A DNA stretch of 64,000 nucleotides, taken from NCBI GenBank assembly GCA_964515035.1, contig CAZEUO010000006.1, positions 10,103 through 74,102 of the forward strand, written 5' to 3'. Of this stretch, positions 1,817 through 64,000 are shown one piece after another (positions within the stretch are counted from its first letter, which is position 1; each line of letters opens with the position of its first letter). This DNA comes from an uncultured Planctomycetales bacterium. Lineage in GTDB: Bacteria; Omnitrophota; Gorgyraeia; Zapsychrales; CAZBRU01. A program made the translations under genes and the position numbers. The notes beneath the pieces were generated by a model. That model searched no databases. It saw only the letters and a list, made by a program, of their open reading frames with translations, and was not told where the DNA came from.

Positions 1817-2014
1817 ATGCAATATAAAATGAAAAAACTAGCCGAAACTTACACAGTCGAAGAAGTCGCGGAAGCTCTCAAGCTTCATCCCTATACCGTG
1901 CGCCGATTATGCAGAGAGGGCAAAATCCCAGGATTTAAATTCGGTGGGCAATGGAGATTTCAGAAAGAATCTATTAATAAATTTGTCAATTTATCAAAGA
2001 TGAAAAAACAATGA
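1817..2014 (+). CDS. small helix-turn-helix DNA-binding protein, excisionase/MerR-like (HTH_17) family; possible controller of the downstream Res-Mod operon
   Basis: 65 aa with the pattern TVEEVAEAL...YTVRRLCREGKIPGFKFGGQWRF, typical of excisionase-family HTH. Its stop overlaps the res start (ATGA). Palindromes lie in the upstream promoter region. Confidence 0.55.
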   Translation: MQYKMKKLAETYTVEEVAEALKLHPYTVRRLCREGKIPGFKFGGQWRFQKESINKFVNLSKMKKQ

Positions 2015-11119: not shown

Positions 11120-11516
11120 TGTTAAAACTAAGCGGAAGCTGCCAATGTTTCTTTCAAGAGTTCGCGCCGGGTTTCCGTCCCCCGCAGATGATTACCTCGA
11201 CAAGAAACTGGACTTAAACGAACATCTGATTAAGCATCCCGCCGCTACTTTTTTTGTCAAAGTCAAAGGCGATTCGATGATAAAGGCGGGAATTAATTCG
11301 GGAGATATTCTGGTAGTTGATCGTTCGCTTGAACCAAAAGATAAGAAAATTGTTGTGGCGATACTAAATGGAGAGTTTACGGTCAAGCGAGTGCGAAAGA
11401 TGAAGGACAAATTATATCTGGTTTCAGAAAATGACGATTATCTGCCTATTGAAATCAAAGATGACGCGGAGTTTGAGATTTGGGGAGTAGTTGCCCATGT
11501 TATCCACTCAGTCTGA
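11091..11516 (+). CDS. umuD: UmuD (S24 LexA-like self-cleaving peptidase, TLS polymerase V accessory subunit)
   Basis: RAGFPSPADDYL...KVKGDSMIKAGINSGDILVVD aligns to the E. coli UmuD cleavage site (CG/FPSP) and the catalytic Ser (GDSM). Lys is in the C-terminal part. The full-length N-terminal arm is present if the start is 11091. Confidence 0.75.
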   Translation: MKIIEIYHCNVKTKRKLPMFLSRVRAGFPSPADDYLDKKLDLNEHLIKHPAATFFVKVKGDSMIKAGINSGDILVVDRSLEPKDKKIVVAILNGEFTVKRVRKMKDKLYLVSENDDYLPIEIKDDAEFEIWGVVAHVIHSV

Positions 11517-22220: not shown

Positions 22221-22502
22221 ATGCGAACGATAGCGCTACTAACCGCGTGTATTTTATTTTCTGGATGTGCGACTTATGGTTCATTGCCGTTTATAAAAGC
22301 AACGGATCAACAGCCGTCTGTAGAAACTGAAACCGTATGGGTAAACGCAAAAACAAAGAAGATTTGGATTAATCCGCATGTCGATGACGAAGGCAATATG
22401 GTCGAAGGGCATTATAAATTTATTGTTTTGGAGAAAGGCCATTGGGCCTTACAGGAAATTGCTCCGGAAAACACAATTACGAATAAATCGGAAGGCAAAT
22501 GA
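22221..22502 (+). CDS. small lipoprotein (possible VirB7-like)
   Basis: Lipobox LFSGC. 93 aa. Located between VirB10 and VirD4. Confidence 0.4.
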   Translation: MRTIALLTACILFSGCATYGSLPFIKATDQQPSVETETVWVNAKTKKIWINPHVDDEGNMVEGHYKFIVLEKGHWALQEIAPENTITNKSEGK

Positions 22503-24211
22503 ACGACAAGATTGTCCTTATCATCTTGGTCTTAATTTTGGGGTATTACCATTACCGGGAATTTATTTCTGAGGAGTTGAACAATCCCTTATTTTACGGG
22601 GCGCTGATTATTTTCTTTTTCCTTATATTATTTGTCGGCCACTATTTCGAGAAATTTCAAAACAAATTAAGTATGTGGCGTCAGGGAATAAGGTTTAACC
22701 CAGACTCAAATCCAATACTTTACCCATTCCGTAAATACAATATTAAAGATTTTTTGGACAGATTCTATGCCATAGAAAGCAATAAGGAGCATACCTTTAT
22801 CGGATTAAATGCTGAAAAGTCGAATAAAGAAGACGTTTTTATTCCGGACATACAGCGCAGCCAGCATTTGCAGGTTTTGGGAATGACCGGGACCGGAAAG
22901 ACTTCAGGCATATTTCTGCCTTTGATTTATCAGGATGCTCTTAAGAAACGCCCGATTATTATTTTAGACGCGAAAGGAGAGATGCACACCGTTAACCAAC
23001 TCAACTCTATTTTTCATTCAATTGGGCGCAGCGACGATTTTCTATTATTTTCGCTTTCCCATAAAGATATTTCTTGTAGTTATAACCCTTTATACGTTGG
23101 GGAATGCGATCCCCAAGTTGTCATTGATGCATTTTTTAATAATTTTAAAGATGAAAATACATTTTATCGTGAAACATCAAAAACGATTTTCACGAATACA
23201 TTTTATATTCTTCATTCGTTAGAAAAGCCATTTACCCCGATGGATGTTTACACCTATTTGACAAATCTAAAATGCCGCTTGGAAATCAATAAACAAATTA
23301 AGCAAAACGAAAAAGGGTTCATTTATTTGAAGCTTCTTAATACCCTTATCGAAAGGCTTACTGACCAATATAAGGGTTGGGAGCATGTTATAACCGGCTT
23401 TAACAATTATCTGTTAAATCATCGGGCTGATCTTTTAAACGTAGATGACAGCGATATTATTCTTACAGATGTCATCCGGGAGAGAAAAATCGTCTATTTT
23501 CAACTCCCGACGAATGCTTATCCCATCCAAGCTGTTAGCATCGCAAAAATGGTACAGGCCAATTTGCGCTACATATCATCACTGATCCAGGTAGGCTTGA
23601 TTCCTAAAGATATTTTAGTCAGCGTCATCATCGATGAATACGGCTCATTTGCCGAAGAAACATTTGTTGAGGTGTTAAATAAGGCCAGAACCAGCGGGAT
23701 GATGGTTACCCTCTCGCACCAAAGTTTGAGTGACTTAAGAATGATTTCGGAAACCTTCATGAAACGCATAGATGAGAATACCCTGAACAAATTATATCTC
23801 AAACAGACAGATCCGGAACTCTGTGAACTGATTGCCAAAAGCATGGGGACCTATATCAAAGAAGAAAAGACCTACCGGATGGTAGGCGGAAATTTTGGTA
23901 ACCAAGTCCATAACGGCGAATCATCAAATCGCCTGGTTAATGAATTCCATTTTCCACCGGACAAGATCAAGAATTTACACAAATTCGGACAAGGTTATTT
24001 TGTATACCGTGGCAATAATACTCATAAATGCGTTAATTTCGGAAAATTCGATAACATTCAAGAAATTCCCTATATCAAGAAAACAAAAAGTAACAAGCGT
24101 GAGGGGTTAAGGCTCTTTGAAAAATATTACTTGGCCAATTCGCTGGAAGAAAAGACACGCAAACCTAAAATGGCGATGGCTTCTAAAGGCCTCATCGAAT
24201 GTGATGATTAA
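22499..24211 (+). CDS. virD4: VirD4/TraG-type conjugative coupling ATPase (T4CP)
   Basis: Two N-terminal TM helices. Walker A LGMTGTGKTSG. Walker B VSVIIDEYGSF. 570 aa. Confidence 0.8.
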   Translation: MNDKIVLIILVLILGYYHYREFISEELNNPLFYGALIIFFFLILFVGHYFEKFQNKLSMWRQGIRFNPDSNPILYPFRKYNIKDFLDRFYAIESNKEHTFIGLNAEKSNKEDVFIPDIQRSQHLQVLGMTGTGKTSGIFLPLIYQDALKKRPIIILDAKGEMHTVNQLNSIFHSIGRSDDFLLFSLSHKDISCSYNPLYVGECDPQVVIDAFFNNFKDENTFYRETSKTIFTNTFYILHSLEKPFTPMDVYTYLTNLKCRLEINKQIKQNEKGFIYLKLLNTLIERLTDQYKGWEHVITGFNNYLLNHRADLLNVDDSDIILTDVIRERKIVYFQLPTNAYPIQAVSIAKMVQANLRYISSLIQVGLIPKDILVSVIIDEYGSFAEETFVEVLNKARTSGMMVTLSHQSLSDLRMISETFMKRIDENTLNKLYLKQTDPELCELIAKSMGTYIKEEKTYRMVGGNFGNQVHNGESSNRLVNEFHFPPDKIKNLHKFGQGYFVYRGNNTHKCVNFGKFDNIQEIPYIKKTKSNKREGLRLFEKYYLANSLEEKTRKPKMAMASKGLIECDD

Positions 24212-25010: not shown

Positions 25011-26210
25011 GTGGCTATGGCTGTTTTCAATCGTGTCTATTGTCCTAATTGTAAGAAAGAGCACAACATCTATGGGGATGACATCAAAGAGTTAAATTGC
25101 GGCCGTTGTGGGTATCCTGTAAAAATAAACCCTAAAGAAGGTAATTTTTTTATTGAGTATTATGCCAAAGGAAAGCGGAAACGGGAGAAAATTGGGCCGA
25201 ACAGAACACTGGCCGAAATAGTCCTCAAAAAACGAAAGGTCGAAATCGCCGAAAAGAAATTTCTCGATATCAAAGAGGAAAAAAGAATTAAATTTGAAGA
25301 TTTTGCCGATGAATATTTGGAACTCCACGCCAAGGTCAATAACAGGTCCTGGAAAAAGGCCGATGCCGTAAACATCAGGCTTCTTAAAAAAGTTTTTTCG
25401 GGAAAGTGCCTTAACGAAATTACGCCGCTGATGATTGATCGATTTAAGGCAGAAAGGGCAAAAAGTCTAAAAGGCGAAAAGAAAACAAAAACAATTTCCC
25501 CTGCTACGGTGAATCGAAATTTAGCTTGCCTGAAAAGCATGTTTAATAAAGCGATTGCCTGGGGTCAGTTTGTCGGAGAAAACCCTGTCCGGCAGGTAAA
25601 ACTTTTTAAGGAGAATAATAAAAGGCTGCGGTTTTTGGAGAAGGAGGAGATTGTCCGGCTATTGGCCAATTGCAATAAACACCTGAAAGCGATTGTTATC
25701 CTTGCCCTGCATACAGGCATGAGGCGGGGAGAAATATTAAATCTTAAGTGGCGCGATATCGATATCAAGCGCGGGGTCATTTATTTGTACAATACCAAGA
25801 ATAGCGAGAAAAGGGAAATCCCTATTAATGAACAGGTGAAAACTGCGCTTATCAGAACACTCAAGCATCCAAAAAGCGAATATATTTTTACTAAAAAAGA
25901 CGGGTCACCCATAGGTGACATTAAGAAATCTTTCTATGCAGCTGTGAAGAAATCTGGTATAATCACGCTTCGTTTTCATGATTTGAGACATACCTTTGCC
26001 TCCCATTTGGTTATGAGTGGAGTTGATTTGAACACAGTAAGAGAATTGATGGGCCACAAGTCGTTGCAAATGACACTTAGATATTCACATTTGTCGCCTG
26101 ACCATAAGAAGCGGGCAGTGGATACCTTGGGTAAGAGAATGGACACATTTTGGACACCAGAGCTAAAAACACTTATTGCAATAAAAGACCAAGTCCCTAT
26201 AACCACTTAA
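25011..26210 (+). CDS. int: tyrosine site-specific integrase with N-terminal CxxC..CxxC zinc-ribbon
   Basis: C-terminal HDLRHTFASHLVMSGVDLNTVRELMGHKSLQMTLRYSHL gives the R..H..R..Y catalytic box. N-terminus CPNCKK..CGRCGYP. Ends 22 nt before tRNA-Met. Confidence 0.9.
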   Translation: MAMAVFNRVYCPNCKKEHNIYGDDIKELNCGRCGYPVKINPKEGNFFIEYYAKGKRKREKIGPNRTLAEIVLKKRKVEIAEKKFLDIKEEKRIKFEDFADEYLELHAKVNNRSWKKADAVNIRLLKKVFSGKCLNEITPLMIDRFKAERAKSLKGEKKTKTISPATVNRNLACLKSMFNKAIAWGQFVGENPVRQVKLFKENNKRLRFLEKEEIVRLLANCNKHLKAIVILALHTGMRRGEILNLKWRDIDIKRGVIYLYNTKNSEKREIPINEQVKTALIRTLKHPKSEYIFTKKDGSPIGDIKKSFYAAVKKSGIITLRFHDLRHTFASHLVMSGVDLNTVRELMGHKSLQMTLRYSHLSPDHKKRAVDTLGKRMDTFWTPELKTLIAIKDQVPITT

Positions 26211-26232: not shown

Positions 26233-26306
26233 GGGCCCATAGCTCAGGCGGTTAGAGCAACTGACTCATAATCAGTGGGTCGGAGGTTCGAGCCCTCCTG
26301 GGCCCA
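26233..26306 (+). tRNA. tRNA-Met (anticodon CAT; elongator or Ile2-type), CCA not encoded; integration target
   Basis: Cloverleaf folded by hand. Acceptor GGGCCCA/TGGGCCC. Anticodon loop CTCATAA. T-loop TTCGAGC. Confidence 0.85.
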
Positions 26307-53983: not shown

Positions 53984-55093
53984 ATGACTCAAAACACAGG
54001 ACGAACGATTTGGATTGTAACAACGGCTATCATGGCGATTGGGCTGATGGCTATTTACAGCGCCTCATCGCAAAGTACCCGGGTTACGCAGGAAATTTTT
54101 TATGATCAATTATGGTGCGCCGCGATCGGACTGACGTTCATGAATTTTCTAAGCCGTTTTGATTACCGCCGGTTTTTTGATTTTGCGTATATCTTGTATG
54201 TGATCAATGTCATTTTGCTGTTTGTCGTTCTCGTGATAGGACGGCATATCTTAGGGGCCAGGCGGTGGCTTGAAATCGGGAGTATTAATTTTCAACCATC
54301 GGAAATGGCGAAGCTGGTTATGATCTTAGTTTTGAGCCGTTACATGAGCCAACAACGCTCAGCCCATTTGTTTCGAGGCCGAGACAAAACACAGGCTTTA
54401 CAAAACGAATTGCTCATTCCGTTTTTGTTGACGGTTGTCCCGATGCTTTTGATTTTTAAGCAACCCGACTTGGGGACAGCGATAATGATTTTTGGAATAT
54501 TTATTGCCATGATGTTTATTAACGGGCTTCGGCTTTCTTATTTTCTTTCTTTTTTAGCATGCGGTTTGGCTGCGGCACCACTGATGTGGCACATCTTGAA
54601 GCCTTATCAAAAAGACAGGCTCCTGGTCTTTTTAAATCCCAATATCGATCCTTTGGGGGCGGGTTATACAATCATCCAGTCAAAAATTGCAGTCGGATCC
54701 GGCCGGCTAATAGGCAAGGGGTGGCTGGAAGGAACGCAAAGCCAATTGAACTTCTTGCCGGAGCGGCACACGGACTTTATTTTTGGAGTTATCGGGGAGG
54801 AATGGGGTTTATTTGGATCCATGCTCTTGGTACTTTGTTTTGTGGTCCTGGTCGATTGCGGTATTAAAATTGCCGCGCGCACAAAAGACAGATTCGGCCA
54901 TTCCTTGGCTTTGGGGGTCGTTGCCATTATTTCTTTGCAGGCGGTTATAAATATCGGAATGGTTTTGGGATTGTTTCCTGTTGTTGGATTGACGTTACCT
55001 TTGGTAAGCTACGGCCGGTCTTCCTTTCTCATGTTTGCCATTATGATCGGTATTTTACTGAACCTTAATCGAAAACTGGCCAAGCAGAAGTAG
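53984..55093 (+). CDS. rodA: peptidoglycan glycosyltransferase RodA (SEDS family)
   Basis: About 370 aa polytopic. FQPSEMAKL, DFIF..GEEWG motifs. Start set at ATG 53984 after the mrdA stop. Confidence 0.85.
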   Translation: MTQNTGRTIWIVTTAIMAIGLMAIYSASSQSTRVTQEIFYDQLWCAAIGLTFMNFLSRFDYRRFFDFAYILYVINVILLFVVLVIGRHILGARRWLEIGSINFQPSEMAKLVMILVLSRYMSQQRSAHLFRGRDKTQALQNELLIPFLLTVVPMLLIFKQPDLGTAIMIFGIFIAMMFINGLRLSYFLSFLACGLAAAPLMWHILKPYQKDRLLVFLNPNIDPLGAGYTIIQSKIAVGSGRLIGKGWLEGTQSQLNFLPERHTDFIFGVIGEEWGLFGSMLLVLCFVVLVDCGIKIAARTKDRFGHSLALGVVAIISLQAVINIGMVLGLFPVVGLTLPLVSYGRSSFLMFAIMIGILLNLNRKLAKQK

Positions 55094-55223
55094 TGGGGTC
55101 AAAATTGCTAAAGGATTTTGTCAAAGCCCCACTCGTCCGCTTTGAAAAGCATTCGAAGGATTGACAAGTTGATAAAAGACACGCTACAATGTAACGGGTT
55201 GTTGTCCTGTCGGGAGGAATTTT

Positions 55224-56651
55224 ATGAAAAATAATTTTACATGGATCTTTGTGAGGCTAAAAGGGTTAAGGCATGAATTGGCTTTTGCTTTTGGCCTTGT
55301 CATGTTGGCAACTCTGGTTTTTTTAGGTTATCTTTTCCCCGGAATTTCCTCCGCTTTCTCCGTTCAGACGCATTTGCCTTATGCTGTTTTTCTGGCGGTA
55401 TTAATTGTTGTCCTGGCCTTCTTGTGGATTCGTCAGGTTTTGATTAATCCGGTAATCAACATTAGCCAAAGAATTGCGGCCGGGGATTATAACCGGCAGA
55501 TTGTACTCACCAGAGAAGATGAGATCGGCGAATTAGGAGATGCCTTAAACCGCATGACATCCCGAATCCGCACGGACATGGAGGAATTAAAGAATTTTGG
55601 CCAGAAAACCGAGGCCATTAATGCGGATATTAATAAAAGGATTCTTTCTCTTTCCGGCCTTCTGCAAATCAGTAATCTGATTTCCCAAAATACCCAGCTT
55701 GACAAAATTGTTGACGTCGGTGTTGAGCGCTGTTTGTCCAGCGGTGAAATGTCTTTGGGCTGTTTAATTCTTAAGGATGAAAGGACAAATGATTTTACCG
55801 TCAAAACTATTCAGGGGGCCTTGAAGGATCTTTTGCTAAGTCAGGATTTGGATCAACTGCGGATCAAATTAGGAGAGGGGTTGTTGGGTTTGATTATTTT
55901 AAAGCGGGAAACGCTTTTAATCGATAGAAATTCCAAAGAGACCGCGGAAATCAGGGATTTCAGGAAACAGTTTTCCATCGTCAATTGTTTAGGGTTGCCC
56001 ATCAGTTGCCGCGGAAAAACCCACGGAATACTTTTAGTCGGGAACCAAAAAAGCGATTACATTTTCTCTTCATCTGACAAAGAATGGCTGGATCTGTTTG
56101 TAAAACAGATCGCTATTGCCATTGAAAATATCCTCTTAGCCAACCAGGTTGAAAAGTTAGAAGTGATCGACAGCTTAACGGGGCTGTATAACCATACGTA
56201 CATTCAGGAAAGGCTCGATGAAGAAATTAAACGGGCGATTAGTTTTCAACGTCCGTGTGCCTTTGTATTATTCACCATTGATGCGTTCCAGGAATTCCAT
56301 TCCTCTTTTGGGCACTTGGCCGCTGAAAATATACTGGTTAAAATCGGAACGGCCCTTAAGGAGAATATTAATGACGTCGATAAGGCTGCACGGTTTGGAG
56401 ACCATGAATTTGCCCTGATTTTGCCGGAGCGAAACAAGCGTCAGGCTATTGATATTGCCGATTCGATTCGAAGGAAGATTGAATACCTTTTTGCTGAGGA
56501 AGAAAATCAGCAGAAACGGCTCACCTGTACGGGGGCCGTAGCCGAAAACCCCGTCGACGGAGTGCGGGCGGAAGAGTTAGTATCGAAGGCCCGGGCCATT
56601 CTTACGTCCGCTATAAAGCAAGGCGGGAACAGGATTTGCTATAAGGTTTAA
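55224..56651 (+). CDS. membrane HAMP-GAF-GGDEF domain protein with degenerate active-site motif (GDHEF)
   Basis: TM helices. HAMP-like SQRIAAGDYN...IGELGDALNRM. GGDEF-domain context LTGLYNHTYIQ...RFGDHEFALIL. Confidence 0.75.
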   Translation: MKNNFTWIFVRLKGLRHELAFAFGLVMLATLVFLGYLFPGISSAFSVQTHLPYAVFLAVLIVVLAFLWIRQVLINPVINISQRIAAGDYNRQIVLTREDEIGELGDALNRMTSRIRTDMEELKNFGQKTEAINADINKRILSLSGLLQISNLISQNTQLDKIVDVGVERCLSSGEMSLGCLILKDERTNDFTVKTIQGALKDLLLSQDLDQLRIKLGEGLLGLIILKRETLLIDRNSKETAEIRDFRKQFSIVNCLGLPISCRGKTHGILLVGNQKSDYIFSSSDKEWLDLFVKQIAIAIENILLANQVEKLEVIDSLTGLYNHTYIQERLDEEIKRAISFQRPCAFVLFTIDAFQEFHSSFGHLAAENILVKIGTALKENINDVDKAARFGDHEFALILPERNKRQAIDIADSIRRKIEYLFAEEENQQKRLTCTGAVAENPVDGVRAEELVSKARAILTSAIKQGGNRICYKV

Positions 56652-56669
56652 ACGGATTACCCAACAAAA

Positions 56670-57119
56670 ATGTCAAGCTATAAGAAAATTACAAACAAAC
56701 ACTTAGGCGAACTTTTGATTGAGCGGGGCGTCATCAATCACGAGCAACTGAATTTAGCCATCAATTTCCAGCAGCAAAAAGGCGGTTTGATTGGAGAAGT
56801 TCTTGTCGAATTAAAATTCGCAACTGAGGAAAACATTGCCCAGGCCTTGACCTGCCAATATGGGTTTCCTTATCTTCCTTTGTCAAATTATGAAATCGAC
56901 TTGGAAGTCGTCAAGTCAATTCCCGAGAACGTCTGCCGGCAATTTTGTTTAATTCCGATCGATAAAATCGGAAAGAGTTTGACCTTGGCTATGGCCAATC
57001 CGCTGAACGTTCAGGCGATTGAGGATGTGGAGCTCATCACAGGCTGTGCCGTCCAGACCTTTGTCAGTACATCGAGCGATATCCGCAATTCTATTGATAA
57101 ATATTTTAGAGGAAAATAA
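56670..57119 (+). CDS. standalone MshEN / T2SSE_N domain protein (putative c-di-GMP receptor)
   Basis: HLGELLIERGVINHEQLNLAINFQ fits the LGxxLLxxGhhxxxxLxxxLxxQ c-di-GMP-binding motif of MshEN domains. Confidence 0.65.
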   Translation: MSSYKKITNKHLGELLIERGVINHEQLNLAINFQQQKGGLIGEVLVELKFATEENIAQALTCQYGFPYLPLSNYEIDLEVVKSIPENVCRQFCLIPIDKIGKSLTLAMANPLNVQAIEDVELITGCAVQTFVSTSSDIRNSIDKYFRGK

Positions 57120-57122
57120 AAC

Positions 57123-58850
57123 GTGTTTTCACTGAAAGAGCGCCTTAAAGAAATTTTAATTCGTGACAATATCATCAAGCAGGAAGATCTTGACCGGGCG
57201 CTTGAGGTTCAAAAAAAAGAGGGCGGCGACCTAAGCAAAATCCTCGTTAAGATGAATCTCATTAGCGAGGATGACTTGACGATGTTGTTGAGTCAGGGTT
57301 TGGGAATGCCCCCCATTGATATCGGCCGACTCAAAATTGATCCGGCAGTTGTCAGAATGATTCCCCAGGAAGTGGCGATCAATTTTAGGATTATCCCGGT
57401 TTCTAAGATTGGTGGGAGCCTGACGTTGGCCATGGCTGATCCGCTTAATATTTTTGCTATCGATAATGTCAAGGCGTTGACCGGTCTTGAAATCAACCCC
57501 ATTATCGGGCGTTCCAAGGATATTTTGCAGGCCATCAACACCTACTATAATGAGGATGCAACATCAAAGTTTGCCCAAATTATGAAGCAGATGGACGATG
57601 CGGAAAATCTCGAATTGATCAAAGACGCCGCAGCGGGGATGGATCAGCAGGATATCGAGAATTTAACCAAAGAAGCGCCTATCATCCGGTTGACGGATGC
57701 GATTGTCAAGCAAGGGGTTATCGCCAAGGCGAGCGATATTTTTATTGAGCCGCTGGAAAAAGCATTACGCGTCCGTTATCGCGTCGATGGTATTATCCGG
57801 GAAGTCGACCAACTGTCCAAATCGCTGCATTTTCCGATTGTCTCCAGGATTAAAATTCTTTCCAGTCTTGATATTTCCGAACATCGGCTTCCCCAAGATG
57901 GGCGATTTAAAGTCGTCATGGATAGTTCCAAAGAGGTTGACTTGCGTGTCAGCGTTCTTCCTGCGGCATACGGGGAAAAGGTTGTGTTGAGAATTCTGGA
58001 CAAGACGGCAGCCATGCTGGATATTGCCAAATTAGGATTCACCGATAAATCACTCGAAACGTTAAAACAGTGTTCTTTGAAACCTCACGGAATGATTTTA
58101 ACTTGCGGGCCAACGGGAAGCGGAAAAACAACCACCCTTTATTCCATCTTAAAATTTATTGATACGCCGGAGAGAAATATTATTACCGTTGAAGACCCGG
58201 TCGAATATCAAATGAAGGGTATTAGCCAGGTCAATGTGCGTTCAGAGGTGGGCCTGACATTTGCGTCCAGTTTGCGTTCCATTTTGCGCCAGGACCCCGA
58301 TATTATTTTTGTTGGAGAAATCCGTGATTTCGAAACCCTTGATATTGCCATTAAATCTGCTTTGACCGGCCACTTGGTTTTGAGTTCATTGCATACTACG
58401 ACCGCATCGGGATCGGTTGTCCGTATGATGAATATGGGGATTGAGCCGTTTTTGATTTGTGCGTCTGTCATCGCGATCGTCGCTCAGAGACTTTTAAGAA
58501 AAGTGTGTGTCAATTGCAAGGAAACTTATATACCTCCTGATGTTTTGATTAAGAAAATTGGTTTGGATAAGGCGGCAGGCGGAAAGGATGTAAAATTGTT
58601 CCGCGGAAAAGGTTGCAAGGTTTGCGGAAATTTGGGTTATAGCGGAAGAATTGGAATTACGGAGATCTTAGTTTTGACGCCGAAGGTCAAGGATCTGATC
58701 ATGCGTCGGGCCGGGGAATATAAAATCAAAGAGGCCGGCCGTGAGGACGGTATGGTGACGATGCGCGAAGACGGATTGAAAAAAGCCCTTTTGGGGCTGA
58801 CCTCGCTTGAAGAAGTGCTGCGAGTTACGGCTGCGGACGAGGCAAAGTAA
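57123..58850 (+). CDS. pilB: type IV pilus / T2SS assembly ATPase (PilB/GspE family), paralog 1
   Basis: N-terminal T2SSE_N domain. Walker A GPTGSGKTTTL. Asp/His boxes. Tetracysteine CVNCKE...CKVCG. Confidence 0.85.
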   Translation: MFSLKERLKEILIRDNIIKQEDLDRALEVQKKEGGDLSKILVKMNLISEDDLTMLLSQGLGMPPIDIGRLKIDPAVVRMIPQEVAINFRIIPVSKIGGSLTLAMADPLNIFAIDNVKALTGLEINPIIGRSKDILQAINTYYNEDATSKFAQIMKQMDDAENLELIKDAAAGMDQQDIENLTKEAPIIRLTDAIVKQGVIAKASDIFIEPLEKALRVRYRVDGIIREVDQLSKSLHFPIVSRIKILSSLDISEHRLPQDGRFKVVMDSSKEVDLRVSVLPAAYGEKVVLRILDKTAAMLDIAKLGFTDKSLETLKQCSLKPHGMILTCGPTGSGKTTTLYSILKFIDTPERNIITVEDPVEYQMKGISQVNVRSEVGLTFASSLRSILRQDPDIIFVGEIRDFETLDIAIKSALTGHLVLSSLHTTTASGSVVRMMNMGIEPFLICASVIAIVAQRLLRKVCVNCKETYIPPDVLIKKIGLDKAAGGKDVKLFRGKGCKVCGNLGYSGRIGITEILVLTPKVKDLIMRRAGEYKIKEAGREDGMVTMREDGLKKALLGLTSLEEVLRVTAADEAK

Positions 58851-58852
58851 TC

Positions 58853-60562
58853 ATGGCAAAAACGTTAAAAGAAAAAATTTTAGAAACTCTCATCGAGTTA
58901 AAAAAGGTTAAGAAAGAAGACCTTGAATCTGCCGTTTCGCTTCAGAAATCGAAAGGGATTAGCCTTGATAAGGCATTAATTGAAAGGGGGCTCATTAATG
59001 AACAGGAACTGCTCATCTTATTTGTCAAGGAATTGAACATCCCACCGATCAATCTCTCCAAATACAAAATCGATCCTGGTTTGCGGGAGATTATCCCGGA
59101 AAGAACCGCAAGGCAATACCATATCATTCCCATTTCCGAGCTTGGGCACACGATAACGATTGCTCTTTCCGATCCGTTCAATATTTTTGCTATTGATGAT
59201 TTAAAGAATATCACCGGCCGCGACGTCGATATCGCCATTAGCACGGAAACAGAAATCCTTCAGGCCATTGATAATTATTATGGAACGAAAAGCGGTATGA
59301 GCGTTTCCGATGTTACGCGGGACATCAACACCGGAGAATTTGAAATTATTCAAGGGCAGGATACGAGTGGAGTCAGCGACATCGTGGTCGCCGAGAGCGA
59401 AGAAGCGCCCATTATCAAAATGGTTGATCTCGTTATCGGGGAGGCTTTAAAACAGAGGGCATCGGACATTCACGTCGAACCGGCGCTAGAAAATCTTCGA
59501 GTTCGTTATCGCATTGACGGGTCATTGCTCGATTTTTTGAATATTCCTAAGGCCAATCAAAATGCCGTTATCGTCAGAATTAAAATTATGTCAGGCCTGG
59601 ACATTACAGAATCGCGTATTCCCCAGGACGGGCGCTTTAAGATGCGGTTTTCGTCCAAAGAGGTCGACTTTCGTGTCTCTTCTTTACCAACGACGTTTGG
59701 AGAAAAAATCGTTATGCGAATTTTGGATCGGGGAGGCCTGTCAATTGGCCTCGAAGGTCTCGGATTTTTCCCGGAAGATATTGAGTTATTTAAGGAAGCT
59801 GTGGCTAAGCCGTTTGGCATGATTTTGGTCACCGGCCCAACGGGAAGCGGAAAATCGACCACGCTTTATTCGGTCATCAATAAATTAAACACGATTGACA
59901 AAAATATCATTACGGTTGAGGATCCCGTTGAATATCTTATTGAGGGTTTAACGCAGATTCAAGTGAAATCCGAAATTGGCCTGACCTTTGCATCCGGGTT
60001 GAGATCCATTTTACGACAAAGTCCCGATATTGTCATGGTTGGGGAGATCCGCGACTCAGAAACCGCAGATATCGCCATTAAGGCCTCACTCACTGGACAG
60101 CTTGTCTTTGCGACCCTTCACACCAACGATGCGGCAGGGTCTTTAACCCGTTTGGTTGATATGGGTGTTGAGCCGTTTTTAGTTGCCTCCAGTTTGGTCA
60201 TGGTGTGCGCCCAACGGCTTTGCCGGAAAATTTGTACAAAGTGCAAAGAACCGATCAAAATTCCCGACCAGGTTTTTAAGGAAATTAAATTTAAGCCGCC
60301 CAGTGGCGCGGTTTTTTATCAGGGCAAGGGTTGCGAATATTGCCGCCAGACCGGATATCGGGGGCGCATGGGAATCCTTGAAATCATGATGATCAACGAC
60401 GAGGTTCGGGAAATGCTCATCAAGGGCGCTTCTTCTCACGAAATAAAAGAATATGCTGTCAAAGAGAATGGTATGAAAACGCTTTGGGACGATGCGCTCA
60501 GGAAGTTGACGGAAGGCATGACGACCTTGGAAGAAGTCTTGCGCGTAACAACATCAGATTGA
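58853..60562 (+). CDS. type IV pilus / T2SS assembly ATPase (PilB/GspE family), paralog 2
   Basis: N-terminal T2SSE_N domain. Walker A GPTGSGKSTTL. Tetracysteine CTKCKE...CEYCR. Confidence 0.85.
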   Translation: MAKTLKEKILETLIELKKVKKEDLESAVSLQKSKGISLDKALIERGLINEQELLILFVKELNIPPINLSKYKIDPGLREIIPERTARQYHIIPISELGHTITIALSDPFNIFAIDDLKNITGRDVDIAISTETEILQAIDNYYGTKSGMSVSDVTRDINTGEFEIIQGQDTSGVSDIVVAESEEAPIIKMVDLVIGEALKQRASDIHVEPALENLRVRYRIDGSLLDFLNIPKANQNAVIVRIKIMSGLDITESRIPQDGRFKMRFSSKEVDFRVSSLPTTFGEKIVMRILDRGGLSIGLEGLGFFPEDIELFKEAVAKPFGMILVTGPTGSGKSTTLYSVINKLNTIDKNIITVEDPVEYLIEGLTQIQVKSEIGLTFASGLRSILRQSPDIVMVGEIRDSETADIAIKASLTGQLVFATLHTNDAAGSLTRLVDMGVEPFLVASSLVMVCAQRLCRKICTKCKEPIKIPDQVFKEIKFKPPSGAVFYQGKGCEYCRQTGYRGRMGILEIMMINDEVREMLIKGASSHEIKEYAVKENGMKTLWDDALRKLTEGMTTLEEVLRVTTSD

Positions 60563-60695
60563 GTTTAGCCTATTAATTTATCGAAAGTACGTCTTGATAT
60601 TGGTAGGCTTTAAGGTAAAATAACTACAGTGGTTTTAGAATTTAGAGTGCGTTGGCAGTCCGCTGGACGGCATGAGAAAATTTAAAGGGGATTGA

Positions 60696-61151
60696 ATGGC
60701 TTTCTCAAGAAGAGATTTGATTACAAAAAAGCAGCTCATGGGTCAGATATTGCTCAAGCGGAATTTTATCACCCAGGAGCAGCTCAAAGAGGCGCTCGAG
60801 ACTCAGAAAAAGAACGGGGGGGTCCTGGGGGAAATTCTCGTCAAACTTGGCTTTATTACGGAAAAGGATATCGTCGTTGCGTTGATTGTTCAATGCGGAT
60901 TTCCTTACATTGCTGTTAACAAGTACGAAATTGATCCGAAAGTTATATTGCTGGTTTCTGAGGAAATGGCACGAAAATATCACGCCATTCCTTTGGATCG
61001 CGTCGGGGATGTCTTAAGCGTTGTCATGGCCAATCCTTTGGATATTGCGATCATTGAGGATCTTGAAAAGATAACGCATTGTAAAATTGCCACATTCATC
61101 GCCACAAAAGCGGAAATTGATGAGGCGATTAATCATCGTTACAGAAAATAA
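60696..61151 (+). CDS. standalone MshEN / T2SSE_N domain protein, second copy
   Basis: LMGQILLKRNFITQEQLKEALETQ matches the same motif with G to N at one position. Confidence 0.65.
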   Translation: MAFSRRDLITKKQLMGQILLKRNFITQEQLKEALETQKKNGGVLGEILVKLGFITEKDIVVALIVQCGFPYIAVNKYEIDPKVILLVSEEMARKYHAIPLDRVGDVLSVVMANPLDIAIIEDLEKITHCKIATFIATKAEIDEAINHRYRK

Positions 61152-61220
61152 ACTGCCTGAACAATTGGCGGGTTTTTGAGATTAACCATTTTTAAAGTTC
61201 GAAAACGGGAGGCTTGATGC

Positions 61221-62429
61221 ATGGCCACATTTAAATACGTTGCAAAAGATGCCAATGCGCATACCGTCAACGGAAAAATTATGGCTGATAACCAGACAGC
61301 GGTTATCGAAGAATTACGCAAGAGAAAACTCGTCATTATTTCTGTAACCGAAATCAAAGAGTCGAGTTTTAAGATGGGGTCTTTCGGCGGGAAAAGAGTC
61401 AAGCCCGATGACTTGGTTATTTTTTCCAGGCAGCTGGCGACCATGGTGGAAGCGGGGATTCCGTTGCTTCAAGGTTTGGATGCTCTTCAGGAACAAATAA
61501 CCCACCCCTATTTTAAAAGCGTTATAGCGGCGATTCGTGACGATATCGAAGTCGGCAACAGCCTTTCGGCGGCGTTTTCAAAATACCCGCATATTTTTGA
61601 CGTTCTTTTTATCAGTATGGTCAAGGTTGGGGAATCCGGTGGTATGCTTAACGTCATTTTAGACCGCGTGGCCCAATATATGGAAAAATCAATTAAACTA
61701 AAGCGAAAAATTGCTTCCGCACTTGTCTATCCACAAGTTGTCATTGGTATGGCGCTTGTCATTACTTTGTTTTTGTTGGTAAAGGTTGTTCCAACTTTTA
61801 GCGGAATTTTTGAGTCGCTGGGTGCTGAATTGCCCGCACCGACACAATTTTTGATCAATGTCAGCAATGTATTGCGCCATGGATTGCTTTGGGTTATTGG
61901 AAGCATCGTTTTAGTTGTTGTGGCTGTGTCTTATTATGGAAAGACAGAAGGGGGCCGGTTGCAGCTGGATCGTTTAAAACTTAAACTTCCTGTTTTTGGC
62001 GATCTGATTCGGAAGGTTTCGATCAGTCGATTTAGTCGTACTCTGGCAACTTTGACGCAAAGCGGCGTTCCTATTTTAATTTCACTTGATATTGTTTCAA
62101 AAACTTGCGGTAACAAGGTTCTTGAGATTGCCGTTAACAATGTTAAAAATAACGTCCGGGAGGGAGAAAACATTGCCCCGCCTCTCATCAAGAGCGGCGT
62201 TTTTCCTCCGATGGTGACGAGAATGATTTCTGTCGGAGAAAAAACCGGTGAGATGGAGAAAATGCTTGTTAAAATTGCGGAGTTCTATGACGATCAGGTG
62301 GATACGGCTGTTTCGGGCTTGACCAGCATGATCGAGCCTTTGATTATCGGATTTTTGGGTGTTGTCGTCGGCGGGATAGTGGTTGCGTTGTTCTTGCCTA
62401 TTATCAAGATGACAACTTTGATTCATTAA
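61221..62429 (+). CDS. pilC: type IV pilus inner-membrane platform protein PilC/GspF
   Basis: Two GspF repeats with 3 TM. About 400 aa. Confidence 0.85.
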   Translation: MATFKYVAKDANAHTVNGKIMADNQTAVIEELRKRKLVIISVTEIKESSFKMGSFGGKRVKPDDLVIFSRQLATMVEAGIPLLQGLDALQEQITHPYFKSVIAAIRDDIEVGNSLSAAFSKYPHIFDVLFISMVKVGESGGMLNVILDRVAQYMEKSIKLKRKIASALVYPQVVIGMALVITLFLLVKVVPTFSGIFESLGAELPAPTQFLINVSNVLRHGLLWVIGSIVLVVVAVSYYGKTEGGRLQLDRLKLKLPVFGDLIRKVSISRFSRTLATLTQSGVPILISLDIVSKTCGNKVLEIAVNNVKNNVREGENIAPPLIKSGVFPPMVTRMISVGEKTGEMEKMLVKIAEFYDDQVDTAVSGLTSMIEPLIIGFLGVVVGGIVVALFLPIIKMTTLIH

Positions 62430-62465
62430 GGTATACTTAAGAGTAAGCAAAACCGAGGGGACAAC

Positions 62466-62936
62466 ATGAAAAGAAATCTGAAAGGTCAGCGTTCCTTTAC
62501 ACTCATTGAACTTTTAATTACCATGGTTGTTTCGGCCTTGGTCATTAACGGTGTGATTATGTCGATTGTCAATTCCATGGTCTTAAATCAATATAACCAG
62601 GAATTTTCCATCGCCATGAATATTGCCCGCGCGGAAATTGAAGAGTCGATTAGTCAAAAAACAAATTTTACCGGCATCGTAAGCGAAAGCGGAGCAACCT
62701 CGGAATTAACCTTAGCGAATGATGGGCTTAGAGGGTGTAAGAGAAAAGTTGTGACCAATGTTGTTTTAAACGAATTGAGAAACGTCCGGGTGTTTGTTTG
62801 TTGGGTCGGAAGGGGCGGAAGACTCATTGGGAATTGTGTCGATTTAGAAACCCAAGTAAATCCAGTGTGTACTACTCCTCTAGCAGCTTTAGTACAATCA
62901 CCTGTGATGCTGGAAACGGCGGTGGCTCGAAGATAG
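62466..62936 (+). CDS. type IV pilin / pseudopilin with prepilin N-terminal methylation motif
   Basis: KGQRSFTLIELLITMVVSALV gives the class III signal (G/F cleavage, E+5). Two Cys near C-terminus. Confidence 0.7.
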   Translation: MKRNLKGQRSFTLIELLITMVVSALVINGVIMSIVNSMVLNQYNQEFSIAMNIARAEIEESISQKTNFTGIVSESGATSELTLANDGLRGCKRKVVTNVVLNELRNVRVFVCWVGRGGRLIGNCVDLETQVNPVCTTPLAALVQSPVMLETAVARR

Positions 62937-62975
62937 TCCATTTCATATTCCTTCTAAAAAAATCATAAAATCATT

Positions 62976-63022
62976 ACCCTTTTTAGTTTCTTTTATACTA
63001 GAATACTAAAAAGGGTTTTTTG
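62976..63022 (+). terminator. rho-independent terminator after the pilin gene
   Basis: accctttttagt (loop) actaaaaagggt followed by TTTTTTG. Confidence 0.6.
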
Positions 63023-63084
63023 TTTCATGAAAGAGATGAAATAATTCATTTTTTGCCTTTTTTAAATGCAAAGGTTTAGTTCTT

Positions 63085-63726
63085 ATGCCCCAGATTAATT
63101 TATTATCTCCAACCTCACGAAAAAAAGTTACCAATGCCATTCTCTCCGGTGACCCCAAAACCGAACTGGCCCGCGTTTTACCATCAACCATAAAGCGTTC
63201 CGGCATTTGCCTTGTCTTGATTGTGATTATTTGGATTGTTTTAGCTGTTAACGTTTCTGGCAAGGAAAAGGTTCACCACGAAATTGACGAAAAGGTTAAA
63301 GTGCTCGTCGTCAACCCGCAAGAAATTGAAGATTTGAAGAAGGAAAGGGCTGCGCTTGAGAAAAAAGTAAAATTAATTGATGAACTTTCCTCCCGAAAAT
63401 TTTATTGGTATCAGAAACTTGAACTTTTGTCTAAAATTCTTCCCGATGGTATATGGTTTGAAGAAATATCGTTTAAACCCAGAAAAGCAACCTTCGTCAA
63501 GAAATCAACAACGGTCGAAAAAGAGCAGATGGAGCTCTCCTTGAAAGCCGTTGCGGTGGCCTTTAGCCTTGATGATGCCATTAGCCTAATCGGCGGTTTT
63601 GTTGGAAAAATAGAAAAGAACCCTGAGTTTGCCGAGGCTTTTGAAGACATCGATTATAATACGACCAAGGGGACAATCGGCGGTCTTGATGTCATGAAAT
63701 TTGATTTTACCTGCAGGTCAAAATAA
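63085..63726 (+). CDS. pilN: PilN-like pilus assembly protein
   Basis: N-terminal INLL motif (PQINLLSP), single TM, then coiled coil. Confidence 0.5.
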   Translation: MPQINLLSPTSRKKVTNAILSGDPKTELARVLPSTIKRSGICLVLIVIIWIVLAVNVSGKEKVHHEIDEKVKVLVVNPQEIEDLKKERAALEKKVKLIDELSSRKFYWYQKLELLSKILPDGIWFEEISFKPRKATFVKKSTTVEKEQMELSLKAVAVAFSLDDAISLIGGFVGKIEKNPEFAEAFEDIDYNTTKGTIGGLDVMKFDFTCRSK

Positions 63727-63728
63727 TT

Positions 63729-64000
63729 ATGGCTCAAAAACCAAAAGATCCAACATTTAAAATGGATGCTTATGTGGCCCTGGCGGTTCGGTATCTGCCG
63801 CTGTGGTTGCCTGTATTGCTTCTGATCGTATTTATTTCCGCCGTAGGCTGGCCCTTGAGCCTGAAACTGATATCACTTTCCCAGGGGATCATTCGTAAGC
63901 AAAACGAAATAACAACGGCCGTGCGCAACAAATCCGATACGGCAAAAATGAACGATGATTTGGCTATTTTTCGAAAAAAAGTTGATGAATTTGAAAATAA
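63729..64000 (+). CDS. PilO-like protein, 5' partial (runs off window)
   Basis: TM LPLWLPVLLLIVFISAV then coiled-coil. Position after pilN. Confidence 0.35.
   Translation, partial: MAQKPKDPTFKMDAYVALAVRYLPLWLPVLLLIVFISAVGWPLSLKLISLSQGIIRKQNEITTAVRNKSDTAKMNDDLAIFRKKVDEFEN

Follow-up and report, generated by a model that had tools for sequence, protein, structure and literature searches.

A probable type IVa pilus motor locus of Candidatus Omnitrophota with free-standing MshEN proteins as predicted c-di-GMP receptors

Gene content of the locus

The window, the whole stretch of 64,000 nucleotides that was analysed, derives from a Candidatus Omnitrophota bacterium. On its forward strand, the gene for a degenerate HAMP-GAF-GGDEF protein is followed by those for S1, PilB1, PilB2, S2, PilC, a pilin, and a PilN-like protein, and by the start of a PilO gene (Table 1). 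S1 and S2 stand for two free-standing MshEN (GSPII) proteins. A sequence-only reading of this DNA had proposed the order MshEN-PilB1-PilB2-MshEN-PilC-pilin-PilN-PilO, and all of these genes were found in place, PilN on the basis of position and topology only. The 213-aa PilN-like ORF had zero Pfam matches and only a weak NCBIfam match; in the related locus L001, its orthologue directly precedes a PF04350 PilO gene, with which the partial PilO-like ORF of the window shares 32% identity (E=2e-8). No Rfam family was matched in the region 55000-64000.

Table 1 Features of the pilus motor locus in the window
Feature	Position	Strand	Evidence
HAMP-GAF-GGDEF protein, 475 aa, degenerate GGDEF	55224..56651	+	Pfam HAMP, GAF, and GGDEF matches
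S1, free-standing MshEN/GSPII protein, 149 aa	56670..57119	+	Pfam MshEN, 68.7 bits
PilB1, PilB/GspE-type ATPase, 575 aa, GTG start	57123..58850	+	Pfam MshEN + T2SSE, 445 bits
PilB2, PilB/GspE-type ATPase, 569 aa	58853..60562	+	Pfam MshEN + T2SSE, 448 bits
Promoter-like element, TTGATA-16 nt-TAAAAT	60594..60621	+	Consensus scan, 10/12 positions; consensus match only
S2, free-standing MshEN/GSPII protein, 151 aa	60696..61151	+	Pfam MshEN, 72.5 bits
PilC platform protein, 402 aa	61221..62429	+	Pfam T2SSF x2, 214.6 bits; NCBIfam PilC models, 401-411 bits
Prepilin-like protein, 156 aa, N-terminal methylation motif	62466..62936	+	Pfam N_methyl, 25.4 bits (cut-off 21.2)
PilN-like bitopic protein, 213 aa	63085..63726	+	Position and topology only
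PilO-like gene, 5' part, runs off the window	63729..64000	+	Orthology to the PF04350 gene of L001

The free-standing MshEN proteins S1 and S2

Membership of the MshEN family was judged by the gathering score of Pfam PF05157 (23.1) and by the two-subdomain fold, a 4-helix bundle with an alpha/beta subdomain. Both proteins belong to the family: they score 68.7 (S1) and 72.5 bits (S2), and their AlphaFold2 models (pLDDT 90.4 and 86.2, respectively) each show an alpha/beta unit after four helices. Foldseek placed the S2 model closest to domain GSPII-A of PilF (9G1W; TM 0.82), followed by MshE (5HTL; 0.75) and PilF GSPII-B (0.70); the proximity to GSPII-A, a non-binding domain, may reflect only an apo-like model. 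The top PDB sequence match of both proteins is Thermus thermophilus PilF. S1 also matched PilB N-domains and MshE 5HTL (E=5e-16), and the PilB(N)-PilZ structures 7LKM and 7LKO were found in these sequence and Foldseek searches as well.

Two 24-residue motifs set exactly 5 residues apart are present in either protein. In S1, residues 11-34 (HLG...Q) and 40-63 (LIG...Q) are separated by QQKGG; in S2, the spacer KKNGG lies between residues 14-37 (LMG...Q) and 43-66 (VLG...Q). [quoted passage not shown] Plain counts of consensus positions split the small proteins from the ATPases less sharply, whether strict (S1 16/22, S2 18/22, PilB1 16/22, and PilB2 13/22) or relaxed (20, 20, 16, and 16, respectively); the real difference lies in the identity of the missing residues, G3 and Q24.

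Residue statistics were drawn from 82 homologues of S1 and 118 of S2. G3 does not vary in any of the four motifs (G13 and G42 of S1, G16 and G45 of S2), nor does Q24 in three of them (Q63 of S1, Q37 and Q66 of S2), the fourth, Q34 in motif 1 of S1, being kept in 77/82. Positions 2, 17, and 21 are occupied by L, I, or M throughout and form the Leu cluster of the motif. At position 10, the site of the turn glycine, S1 motif 1 and S2 motif 2 have G; the window proteins carry K there in S1 motif 2, where 76/82 homologues have G, and N in S2 motif 1, a site that is N or G in the family. Across the homologues, a hydrophobic residue mostly stands in for the Arg at the start of the motif, as in PilF GSPII-B. 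Motif 1 of S1 starts with H in the window; its homologues begin with Q, H, or L, and the majority with H or Q. Motif 2 of S1 has an invariant L (L40) at this position. For S2, the first residue is L in motif 1 (L14, in 114/118) and, in motif 2, V in the window protein and F, V, or Y among homologues. The guanine-contacting Asp of the C-subdomain (D266 in PilF, D108 in MshE) is Asn in both S1 and S2.

These patterns can be read against published binding data. G3 and Q24 make polar contacts to the guanine and ribose-phosphate of c-di-GMP. A change of the motif G to A costs 10- to 30-fold in binding, and S at motif position 1 or H/R at Q24 abolishes it (PMC12002112). In XpsE, binding is lost through G11V, G40L, R38G, and Q61V (PMC5013675). 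The extended motif consensus reads (R/K/L)LG...Q (Neissner et al. 2024, PMC11731258); the L at position 1 of S2 motif 1 and of S1 motif 2 fits it, and position 1 of S1 motif 1, polar in most homologues, and of S2 motif 2, hydrophobic or aromatic, lie outside the published R/K/L set. Binding without the Arg, at nanomolar affinity, has been documented in GSPII-B of Thermus PilF, and a KD of 2 nM was found for PilF K167L, a hydrophobic position 1 predicting very high affinity (PMC11731258). According to this mutagenesis, substitutions of the type seen in the ATPases weaken or abolish binding, and a hydrophobic residue in place of the initial Arg raises the affinity (PMC11731258, PMC12002112). PilF GSPII-A did not bind even when its perfect consensus had been restored (PMC12002112), as a consequence of its N-cap helix and subdomain contacts. 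Taken at the level of sequence, S1 is a predicted c-di-GMP receptor paired with PilB1, and S2 a predicted Arg-independent one paired with PilC.

The tandem ATPases PilB1 and PilB2

PilB1 and PilB2 are 45% identical, and PilB1 matches Geobacter PilB (5zfr) at 541 bits. The best-scoring family for both is type IV-A PilB (TIGR02538; 629 and 640 bits), at values under its trusted cut-off of 675.65, and GspE (TIGR02533) gives 577 and 604 bits vs 630; the two enzymes are therefore regarded as divergent members of the PilB/GspE clade rather than as certified equivalogs. With the TfpB model they score 433 and 479 bits, far under the cut-off of 850. In line with the sequence-only reading, both are full-length GspE-type ATPases with MshEN and T2SSE domains, the N1, N2, and C-terminal core layout of the PilB/GspE clade, and a tetracysteine Zn motif, CxxC...CxxC, that is invariant in 41 orthologues of PilB1 and 44 of PilB2. 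Neither is PilT-like, as had also been proposed: with TIGR01420 they obtain 179 and 193 bits (cut-off 319), and each has about 570 aa, an N1 domain, and the 4 Cys, whereas PilT/PilU retraction ATPases have about 350 aa and neither of these two features. Walker A, the atypical Walker B, the catalytic (Asp-box) Glu, and the second His of the His box are likewise kept in both sets of orthologues. The His box reads TGH...HTTT in PilB1 and TGQ...HTND in PilB2, where the first His has been replaced (Q416 in 41/44 orthologues); this residue is Q or E in all PilB2-type proteins, and TGQ or TGE reaches the deep lineages. PilB1 and PilB2, two ancient PilB paralogues, both look catalytically competent.

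The N1 domains of the same orthologues differ from S1 and S2 at the residues that count for ligand contact. In PilB1, G3 is changed to K/Q/T in motif 1 and to S in motif 2, and Q24 of motif 2 to G/A/S; in PilB2, G3 has become L/I/F and D/V/E, and Q24 of motif 2 is E. Taken together, three of the four ATPase motifs lack G3, the fourth has it only rarely, and motif 2 lacks Q24 in both ATPases. The MshEN domains fused to the ATPases have lost c-di-GMP-contacting residues throughout the phylum. The domain of PilB2 is the more degenerate of the two. The suggestion that the ATPase N-domains are more degenerate than the small proteins accordingly holds, most clearly at G3 and Q24, with the reservation that the NF053729 score of PilB1 still exceeds the cut-off.

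Conservation across Omnitrophota

For comparison, 51 GTDB species-level genomes were used, in which about 40 loci were long enough to judge gene order. The order S1-PilB1-PilB2-S2-PilC recurred in every one of these, so the arrangement is not due to chance. The S1-PilB1-PilB2-PilC core is also present in the deep lineages L055-L058 and L060. In L059, S1 is fused to PilB1 and followed by a TGQ-type PilB2 and PilC. Identities between the window and L001 are 82% for S1, 80% for S2, 75% for PilB1, 72% for PilB2 and for PilC, 59% for the GGDEF protein, and 39% for the pilin, which makes S1 and S2 the best-conserved proteins of the locus. Both are of constant length and are found, at 48-86% identity, in dozens of independent assemblies; relatives of S2 form more than 120 clusters at >=59% identity, all named ones being from Omnitrophota. 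The layout with free-standing putative receptors is the norm in this phylum, and as far as we found, it has not been described before.

Neither the window nor the surroundings (9-10 kb) of the 51 related loci yielded a PilT-like gene. In L055 and L060, a PilT gene lies directly upstream of the S1-PilB1-PilB2-PilC module (L055: 353 aa, 452 bits with TIGR01420); the tandem PilB pair therefore coexists with PilT.

GGDEF neighbours and gene spacing

Alignment to PleD showed that the protein encoded upstream of S1 has GDHEF in place of GG[DE]EF and lacks the RxxD I-site; the equivalents of PleD N335 and D344 are H and E, and it does not qualify as an active cyclase. The degeneracy is kept in 11 orthologues, and the protein probably acts as a sensor or adaptor rather than as a cyclase. 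There is, consequently, no local source of c-di-GMP in the locus of this genome. In one subclade (L006-L008 and L010-L012), a REC-GGEEF gene and an AGDEF-AAA-HEAT gene, both with RxxD I-sites, are inserted between PilB2 and S2, just upstream of S2; judging by their motifs, these are canonical diguanylate cyclase genes. GGDEF genes are also found upstream of the module in L055, L056, and L060.

The median gap across related loci is -1 nt between S1 and PilB1, 5 nt between S2 and PilC, and 74 nt between PilB2 and S2. This spacing suggests that S1 pairs with PilB1, to which it would be translationally coupled, and S2 with PilC, the partner of S2 being read from spacing only. The spacer between PilB2 and S2 measures 133 nt in the window, and the promoter-like element within it (Table 1) may serve as an internal promoter for S2-PilC; the TTGAT...GTAAAATA element of this spacer aligns in L004 and, in part, in L003. 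Another promoter-like site (55161-55190, 11/12 positions in the consensus scan) precedes the HAMP-GAF-GGDEF gene.

Possible mode of action and alternative explanations

On balance, it is considered somewhat probable that the locus is the core motor operon of an Omnitrophota type IVa pilus, with the c-di-GMP-sensing MshEN domain encoded in trans. The observed gene content, phylum-wide conservation, pattern of residue retention and loss, fold, genomic coupling, fusion, and association with diguanylate cyclase genes allow a model of ligand binding, binding partners, and regulatory outcome to be proposed. S1 and S2 would each bind one c-di-GMP, and their ligand-dependent docking on the motor would license pilus extension or tune it. 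The docking site would be PilB1 for S1 and, for S2, either the PilC platform or the ATPase engaging PilC. Most simply, S1 and PilB1 together may be seen as a split form of a PilF-like ATPase with two GSPII domains. The earlier proposal that c-di-GMP sensing has been off-loaded to separate proteins agrees with all computational tests run and remains a prediction, a perfect motif being known to be insufficient. The idea that these proteins bracket the ATPases and may gate either one calls for refinement: S1 adjoins PilB1, and S2 adjoins PilC and stands apart from PilB2. Features that point away from receptors in trans are the precedent of GSPII-A, the non-consensus residues at position 1, the Asn in place of the guanine-contacting Asp, the structural proximity of the S2 model to GSPII-A, the degeneracy of the adjacent GGDEF protein, and the NF053729 score of PilB1.

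S1 and S2 might instead be ligand-independent structural subunits or decoys that copy the PilB N1 domain and bridge, or compete for, docking sites on PilM, PilN, or PilC. In that case they would determine the PilB paralogue that occupies the platform, and the role of the conserved motif residues would lie in folding or protein contacts and not in c-di-GMP binding. In favour of this, GspE and PilB N1 domains are believed to make contact with the stator or platform (review PMC11656802), the nearest structural match of the S2 model is a PilF domain that does not bind, a perfect motif is no guarantee of binding, and none of the four motifs has the canonical Arg. This explanation is nevertheless deemed unlikely. 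The invariance of G3 and Q24 is confined to S1 and S2, as would fit ligand contacts, and the N1 domains fused to the ATPases have the same fold without keeping these residues, so that G3 and Q24 are not needed for folding. Moreover, binding without the Arg has its precedent in PilF GSPII-B, and GGDEF genes keep recurring next to the module, in one subclade as canonical cyclases within the operon, which speaks for c-di-GMP.

The key feature could also be the tandem of PilBs itself, one of which, most likely PilB2, would have taken over retraction or another non-extension role from PilT, the MshEN proteins deciding on direction. PilB2 takes the place of pilT in many pilB-pilT-pilC operons, and the window and its 51 relatives have no PilT-like gene nearby. 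Its replaced first His-box His, Q or E in all proteins of this type, corresponds to H413 of Geobacter PilB, which is part of an inter-subunit network (PMC5424180). We consider this improbable since both paralogues carry all PilB/GspE hallmarks (N1, tetracysteine, PilB-model scores) and remain far under the PilT cut-off, a pilT gene may lie in another part of this genome, and Acinetobacter baylyi already offers a case of one machine with two extension ATPases (PilB + TfpB). The bona fide PilT upstream of the same pair in two related lineages weakens the suggestion, made from the sequence alone, that one ATPase replaces PilT. As to the small ORFs being annotation or assembly artefacts, e.g., broken PilB fragments or pseudogene remnants, many short public MshEN entries are in fact contig-end fragments of PilB, such as P0234, a partial GspE of Wallbacteria. 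S1 and S2, however, each have a complete ORF with a start and a stop of its own, inside the 64-kb window and between intact full-length genes, and their identity and constant length across dozens of assemblies, together with their top conservation in the locus, rule such an origin out; its probability is negligible.

Comparison with known systems

The arrangement had been called an unusual regulatory layout, which is correct with respect to model organisms; in Omnitrophota it is the norm, and conceptually it amounts to a split multi-GSPII ATPase like Thermus PilF. As in A. baylyi, where PilB and TfpB are found, two PilB-family ATPases are likely to act on one pilus machine. TfpB of that species is not encoded in tandem with PilB, and no MshEN-only partners have been described there; CpiA, the inhibitor in the PilB-TfpB system, is not known to be related to the MshEN-only proteins. 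The PilB-PilZ-FimX systems of Xanthomonas and Pseudomonas resemble the Omnitrophota locus in having a separate c-di-GMP receptor for a PilB whose N-domain does not bind, both points being predictions in the latter. Their trans-acting receptor, which docks on the PilB N-domain, is FimX, a degenerate EAL protein bridged by PilZ, whereas the putative receptor in Omnitrophota is a paralogue of the PilB N-domain.

In MshE of Vibrio cholerae, PilB of Myxococcus xanthus, and PilB2 of Clostridium perfringens, one c-di-GMP-binding MshEN domain is fused to the ATPase. These proteins have the domain family, the two 24-residue motifs, the 5-residue spacer, and a role in T4P extension in common with the Omnitrophota system. 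Their receptor acts in cis and has RLG motifs, while Omnitrophota combine a degenerate cis domain with a putative receptor in trans that has L, F, V, Q, or H at position 1.

The PilB-type ATPase PilF of T. thermophilus carries three GSPII/MshEN domains at its N-terminus, of which A is non-binding and B and C bind c-di-GMP. Both systems have several MshEN domains per T4aP extension motor, a mix of degenerate domains and binding-competent ones (predicted in the case of Omnitrophota), and in both the competent domains lack the canonical Arg; at motif position 1 they have hydrophobic residues in PilF and mostly so in Omnitrophota, where S1 motif 1 is polar in most homologues. In contrast to PilF, which is a single ATPase, Omnitrophota have two ATPase paralogues, and the predicted competent domains are separate polypeptides. 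The ATPase-proximal domain is degenerate in Omnitrophota but is the binding GSPII-C in PilF, and the genomic linkage of S2, one of the free domains, is with PilC and not with an ATPase.

Gene content and organization of the pilus locus

ORF listing and HMM scans of the window confirmed the gene order proposed in the sequence-only reading, MshEN-PilB1-PilB2-MshEN-PilC-pilin-PilN-PilO, with PilN placed by position only. The pilus genes are all co-directional. The two standalone MshEN proteins, S1 and S2, bracket the tandem PilB/GspE-type ATPases PilB1 and PilB2.

Features of the window, with the protein identity of window gene products to those of the homologous locus L001
Feature	Position	Strand	Basis	Identity to L001 (%)
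Type III R-M, Res	2011-4977			
Type III R-M, methylase	4981-7452			
SMC/AAA_21-like gene	7459-10596			
Y-family polymerase	11491-12810			
TraC/VirB4-like ATPase	14972-17779			
TraG/TraD coupling protein	22499-24211			
Tyrosine integrase	25011-26210			
tRNA-Met	26233-26306			
HAMP-GAF-GGDEF gene	55224-56651	+	HMM scan	59
S1, MshEN-only, 149 aa	56670-57119	+	HMM scan	82
PilB1, 575 aa, GTG start	57123-58850	+	MshEN + T2SSE domains	75
PilB2, 569 aa	58853-60562	+	MshEN + T2SSE domains	72
S2, MshEN-only, 151 aa	60696-61151	+	HMM scan	80
PilC	61221-62429	+	HMM scan	72
Prepilin-like protein	62466-62936	+	HMM scan	39
PilN-like ORF	63085-63726	+	Position only	39
PilO-like gene, start only	from 63729	+	Orthology to PF04350 gene	

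Over the loci compared, the median gaps are -1 nt (S1-PilB1), 4 nt (PilB1-PilB2), 74 nt (PilB2-S2), and 5 nt (S2-PilC), and two gene blocks can therefore be distinguished, S1-PilB1-PilB2 and S2-PilC. S2 is preceded by a promoter-like element common to close relatives; little else in the PilB2-S2 spacer is conserved, and a search for riboswitches or other RNAs gave no Rfam match in positions 55000-64000 at E ≤ 1. The downstream pilus genes of L001 (12469-18323) are unusually arranged: the PilN-like gene and PilO are followed by one for a small T2SSB/T2SSC-like protein, a possible PilP analogue, and then by those for a secretin, a 472-aa coiled-coil/TPR protein and, last, PilM.

GC content is lower at 1-26306 (0.35-0.43) than downstream (0.45), and this block holds a set of mobile-element genes. 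Its integrase is immediately before tRNA-Met, and the block resembles an integrative conjugative element that has entered at that gene.

Conservation and taxonomic distribution

S2 has a large family of homologues 150-155 aa in length, with more than 120 clusters at an identity of at least 59 %, of which all named sources are Candidatus Omnitrophota. Scanning one genome per GTDB species yielded 51 loci, all of them from Omnitrophota, with patterns that were S2-specific, so that the lack of loci outside the phylum bears on S2-type proteins only. Annotation with the window proteins revealed S1-PilB1-PilB2-S2-PilC in every one of these loci long enough to tell. The identities of S1 and S2 to their L001 counterparts are the highest in the locus; both are thus real proteins, under its strongest purifying selection. 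The deeper lineages L055 (Ca. Makaraimicrobium), L056, L058, and L060 have kept S1-PilB1-PilB2-PilC without S2, and their first ATPase always groups with PilB1 and the second with PilB2. TPA MAGs with this Omnitrophota-specific locus (L003, L005, L010, L015, L017-L020, and others) are often titled "uncultured Planctomycetales/Planctomycetia bacterium", probably a taxonomic mislabel.

Many short matches were obtained when a representative library (50 % identity) was searched for standalone MshEN proteins beyond Omnitrophota. One of these, P0234, was rejected as it is a contig-end fragment of a partial GspE/PilB of Wallbacteria, and short length alone is therefore an unreliable criterion. Many of the 140-190-aa MshEN entries in this library are such PilB/GspE fragments, by which length-based counts of standalone MshEN proteins are inflated. 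A profile of divergent true standalone MshENs matched only Omnitrophota-named or unnamed proteins. A 154-aa standalone MshEN in L054 (8001-8465) lies away from pilus genes, between a Rex-like regulator and a nucleoside diphosphate kinase, and has a weaker motif (RIG...E, FIG...R).

The c-di-GMP motifs of S1, S2, and the ATPase N-domains

It had been claimed that the small proteins match the MshEN motif well while the N-domains of the ATPases are degenerate. By overall score this holds only in part: the PilB1 N-domain is still above the cut-off of the NCBIfam motif model NF053729 (47.1 bits vs 38), and a plain consensus count gives 16/22 strict matches for both S1 and PilB1. As counting fails to separate these two, the comparison relied on the identity of the differing residues and on mutagenesis data from the literature, and at that level the distinction stood. 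The motif spacing of S1 and S2 is exactly that of the two-motif consensus, and the residues at the key positions are as follows.

Residues at key motif positions in S1, S2, and the ATPase N-domains
Protein, motif	n	G3	Q24	Position 1
S2, motif 1	118	G16 invariant	Q37 invariant	L in 114/118
S2, motif 2	118	G45 invariant	Q66 invariant	F, V or Y
S1, motif 1	82	G13 invariant	Q34 in 77/82	Q/H/L; preceding Lys almost invariant
S1, motif 2	82	G42 invariant	Q63 invariant	L invariant
PilB1, motif 1	41	K, Q or T		
PilB1, motif 2	41	S	G, A or S	
PilB2, motif 1	44	L, I or F		
PilB2, motif 2	44	D, V or E	E	

Replacement of G3 by Ala lowers the affinity for c-di-GMP 10- to 30-fold, and binding is abolished by Ser at position 1 or by His or Arg at Q24 (PMC12002112). 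Binding was lost in XpsE through changes of a similar kind (PMC5013675). The ATPase-fused domains adopt the fold without G3 and Q24, so the fold itself does not depend on these residues, and that they never or hardly ever vary in S1 and S2 is telling. Taken with the published mutagenesis, the residue pattern predicts that S1 and S2 bind c-di-GMP and that the ATPase N-domains do not.

Position 1 in S1 motif 1 (H/Q) and in S2 motif 2 (V/F/Y) lies outside the published R/K/L set. GSPII-B of PilF, which has K and L at this position, binds with a KD of 6 nM without any Arg, and the K167L variant of PilF does so even better (2 nM); the consensus has been widened to (R/K/L)LG, and a hydrophobic position 1 was proposed to predict very high affinity (PMC11731258). 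In both S1 and S2, Asn takes the place of the C-subdomain Asp that contacts guanine, and a perfect motif was insufficient for binding in GSPII-A of PilF (PMC12002112). AlphaFold2 models of S2 and S1 (pLDDT 86 and 90, respectively) have the MshEN fold, with TM scores of 0.70-0.82 to 5HTL, 8PDK, and 9G1W; they support the fold but do not decide binding.

The two ATPases and PilT

The best family for PilB1 and PilB2 is type IV-A PilB (629 and 640 bits, just under the equivalog cut-off), and against the PilT model they score only 179 and 193 bits (cut-off 319). Both retain Walker A and B, the Asp-box and catalytic glutamates, the γ-phosphate-binding second His, and the four Cys. They are thus full-length GspE-type enzymes with the tetracysteine motif and neither is PilT-like, as was originally proposed. 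At 45 % identity to each other (543 bits), they are about as close to Geobacter PilB (541 and 562 bits) as to their partner, so the duplication is old.

The two paralogues carry complementary, fixed His-box signatures in an inter-subunit coupling motif, TGH...HTTT in PilB1 and TGQ (or TGE)...HTND in PilB2. The first His is Gln or Glu in all PilB2-type proteins (Q416 in the window; also in L055-L059), and HTTT replaces HTND after the second His in all PilB1-type proteins. The His replaced in PilB2 is the equivalent of Geobacter PilB H413, a residue packed against T411 in an inter-subunit network (PMC5424180); by this analogy, PilB2 may couple its subunits differently.

That one of the ATPases replaces PilT is unlikely. 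Such a replacement would accord with the finding of no PilT in the window or among the genes flanking the 51 related loci, but a genuine PilT gene immediately precedes the S1 slot in two deep lineages, L055 (6873-7934) and L060 (3935-6365), the only ones where PilT was seen. Some lineages at least thus have both PilT and the tandem PilBs. Two extension ATPases acting on one pilus are already known from Acinetobacter baylyi (PMC11656802). A bolder reading, to which little credence is given, is that the MshEN proteins would select which of the non-equivalent motors, TGH-type PilB1 or TGQ-type PilB2, engages PilC, so that one machine of these ultra-small predators or parasites would toggle between two motor modes by c-di-GMP level, for example initiation and processive extension, or extension and PilT-independent retraction. 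If true, this would amount to motor exchange, a mechanism without known precedent in type IV filament systems.

Fusions and variants of the S1 slot

In L059 (8001-13263; JGI 3300009514), a 765-aa protein joins an S1-like MshEN, through a Gly/Asn-rich low-complexity linker, to a PilB1-type ATPase, followed by a TGQ-type PilB2 and PilC. By the Rosetta-stone argument, S1 would work with PilB1. The high GC content of L059 (62.5 %) suggests a lineage distant from that of the window. In the light of the fusion, the S1/PilB system is most simply a split form of multi-GSPII ATPases, themselves common in sequence space. In the S1 slot, L056 (8001-8612) has a 203-aa protein containing two c-di-GMP modules, and L060 a 454-aa fusion of MshEN to a DnaA-like AAA+ domain (Bac_DnaA/IstB) in place of a plain MshEN.

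S1 variants of about 203-215 aa (L056 and the library proteins P0296-P0304 and P0395) have an extra N-terminal 53-residue c-di-GMP module and two NF053729 stretches (104 bits); their loci are without S2. In the library proteins P0187, P0235, P0236, and P0260, an S1/S2-like MshEN is fused to PilZ, giving two c-di-GMP receptor folds per protein; P0236 has a DUF7305/adhesin-like C-terminus in addition.

GGDEF genes beside the module

GGDEF genes repeatedly accompany the MshEN-PilB module. In L006-L008 and L010-L012, the PilB2-S2 junction is the exact insertion site of two such genes (3728-8772 in L006), encoding REC-GGEEF and AGDEF-AAA_16-HEAT proteins, both with the RxxD I-site and the N335 and D344 equivalents intact. 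By sequence, these 298-aa response regulators and 1375- to 1425-aa proteins (the AAA_16 part being STAND-like) would be canonical diguanylate cyclases of one Omnitrophota subclade. The HAMP-GAF-GGDEF protein of the window has a degenerate GDHEF and neither an I-site nor the Asn and Asp that bind substrate. The same degeneracy is found in its orthologues in L001, L004, L005, L009, L014, L015, L017, L019, and L020, the motif variants being GDHEF, GDHTF, DDHEF, and SDSEF. The window protein is unlikely to make c-di-GMP and probably serves as a sensor or adaptor without catalytic activity; its gene was rejected as a local c-di-GMP source on account of the degenerate active site.

Significance and comparison with known systems

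Omnitrophota are an uncultured, largely ultra-small phylum in which type IVa pili are nearly universal and thought to mediate host or prey attachment (PMC10066038). The main genomics paper on the phylum reports the presence of these pili and never mentions PilB, PilT, or c-di-GMP (PMC10066038); no report on their regulation was found in the literature. Full-text searches combining Omnitrophota with PilB, PilT, MshEN, or c-di-GMP gave no description of the S1-PilB1-PilB2-S2 arrangement. As comparative genomics the finding stands on solid ground, and split c-di-GMP sensing is a plausible mechanism. If confirmed, this would be the first pilus motor whose MshEN c-di-GMP receptor acts as a separate subunit, and a natural experiment on the poorly understood N1 domain of PilB, with ligand sensing and motor anchoring in different polypeptides. 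The Arg-independent high-affinity motif class would then also take in Q, H, F, V, and Y as position-1 residues. S1 and S2, being small and well-folding, lend themselves readily to binding and structural work, and the fusion and fission variants in L059, L056, and L060 predict interaction partners.

Among the closest known systems, Thermus PilF carries its three GSPII domains in cis; one of them does not bind the ligand, the others do, and high affinity is reached without Arg. The receptor is also in cis in MshE and Myxococcus PilB, whereas the putative receptor is a separate polypeptide in Omnitrophota. The PilB-PilZ-FimX system has a receptor in trans, but of a different fold, and PilB plus TfpB provides a case with two ATPases. 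What is new in Omnitrophota is that the putative receptor domain is encoded on its own, in two copies of which one is genomically tied to PilC, that the ATPase-proximal domains are degenerate and the PilB paralogues form a fixed pair, and that the whole arrangement is conserved across a phylum.
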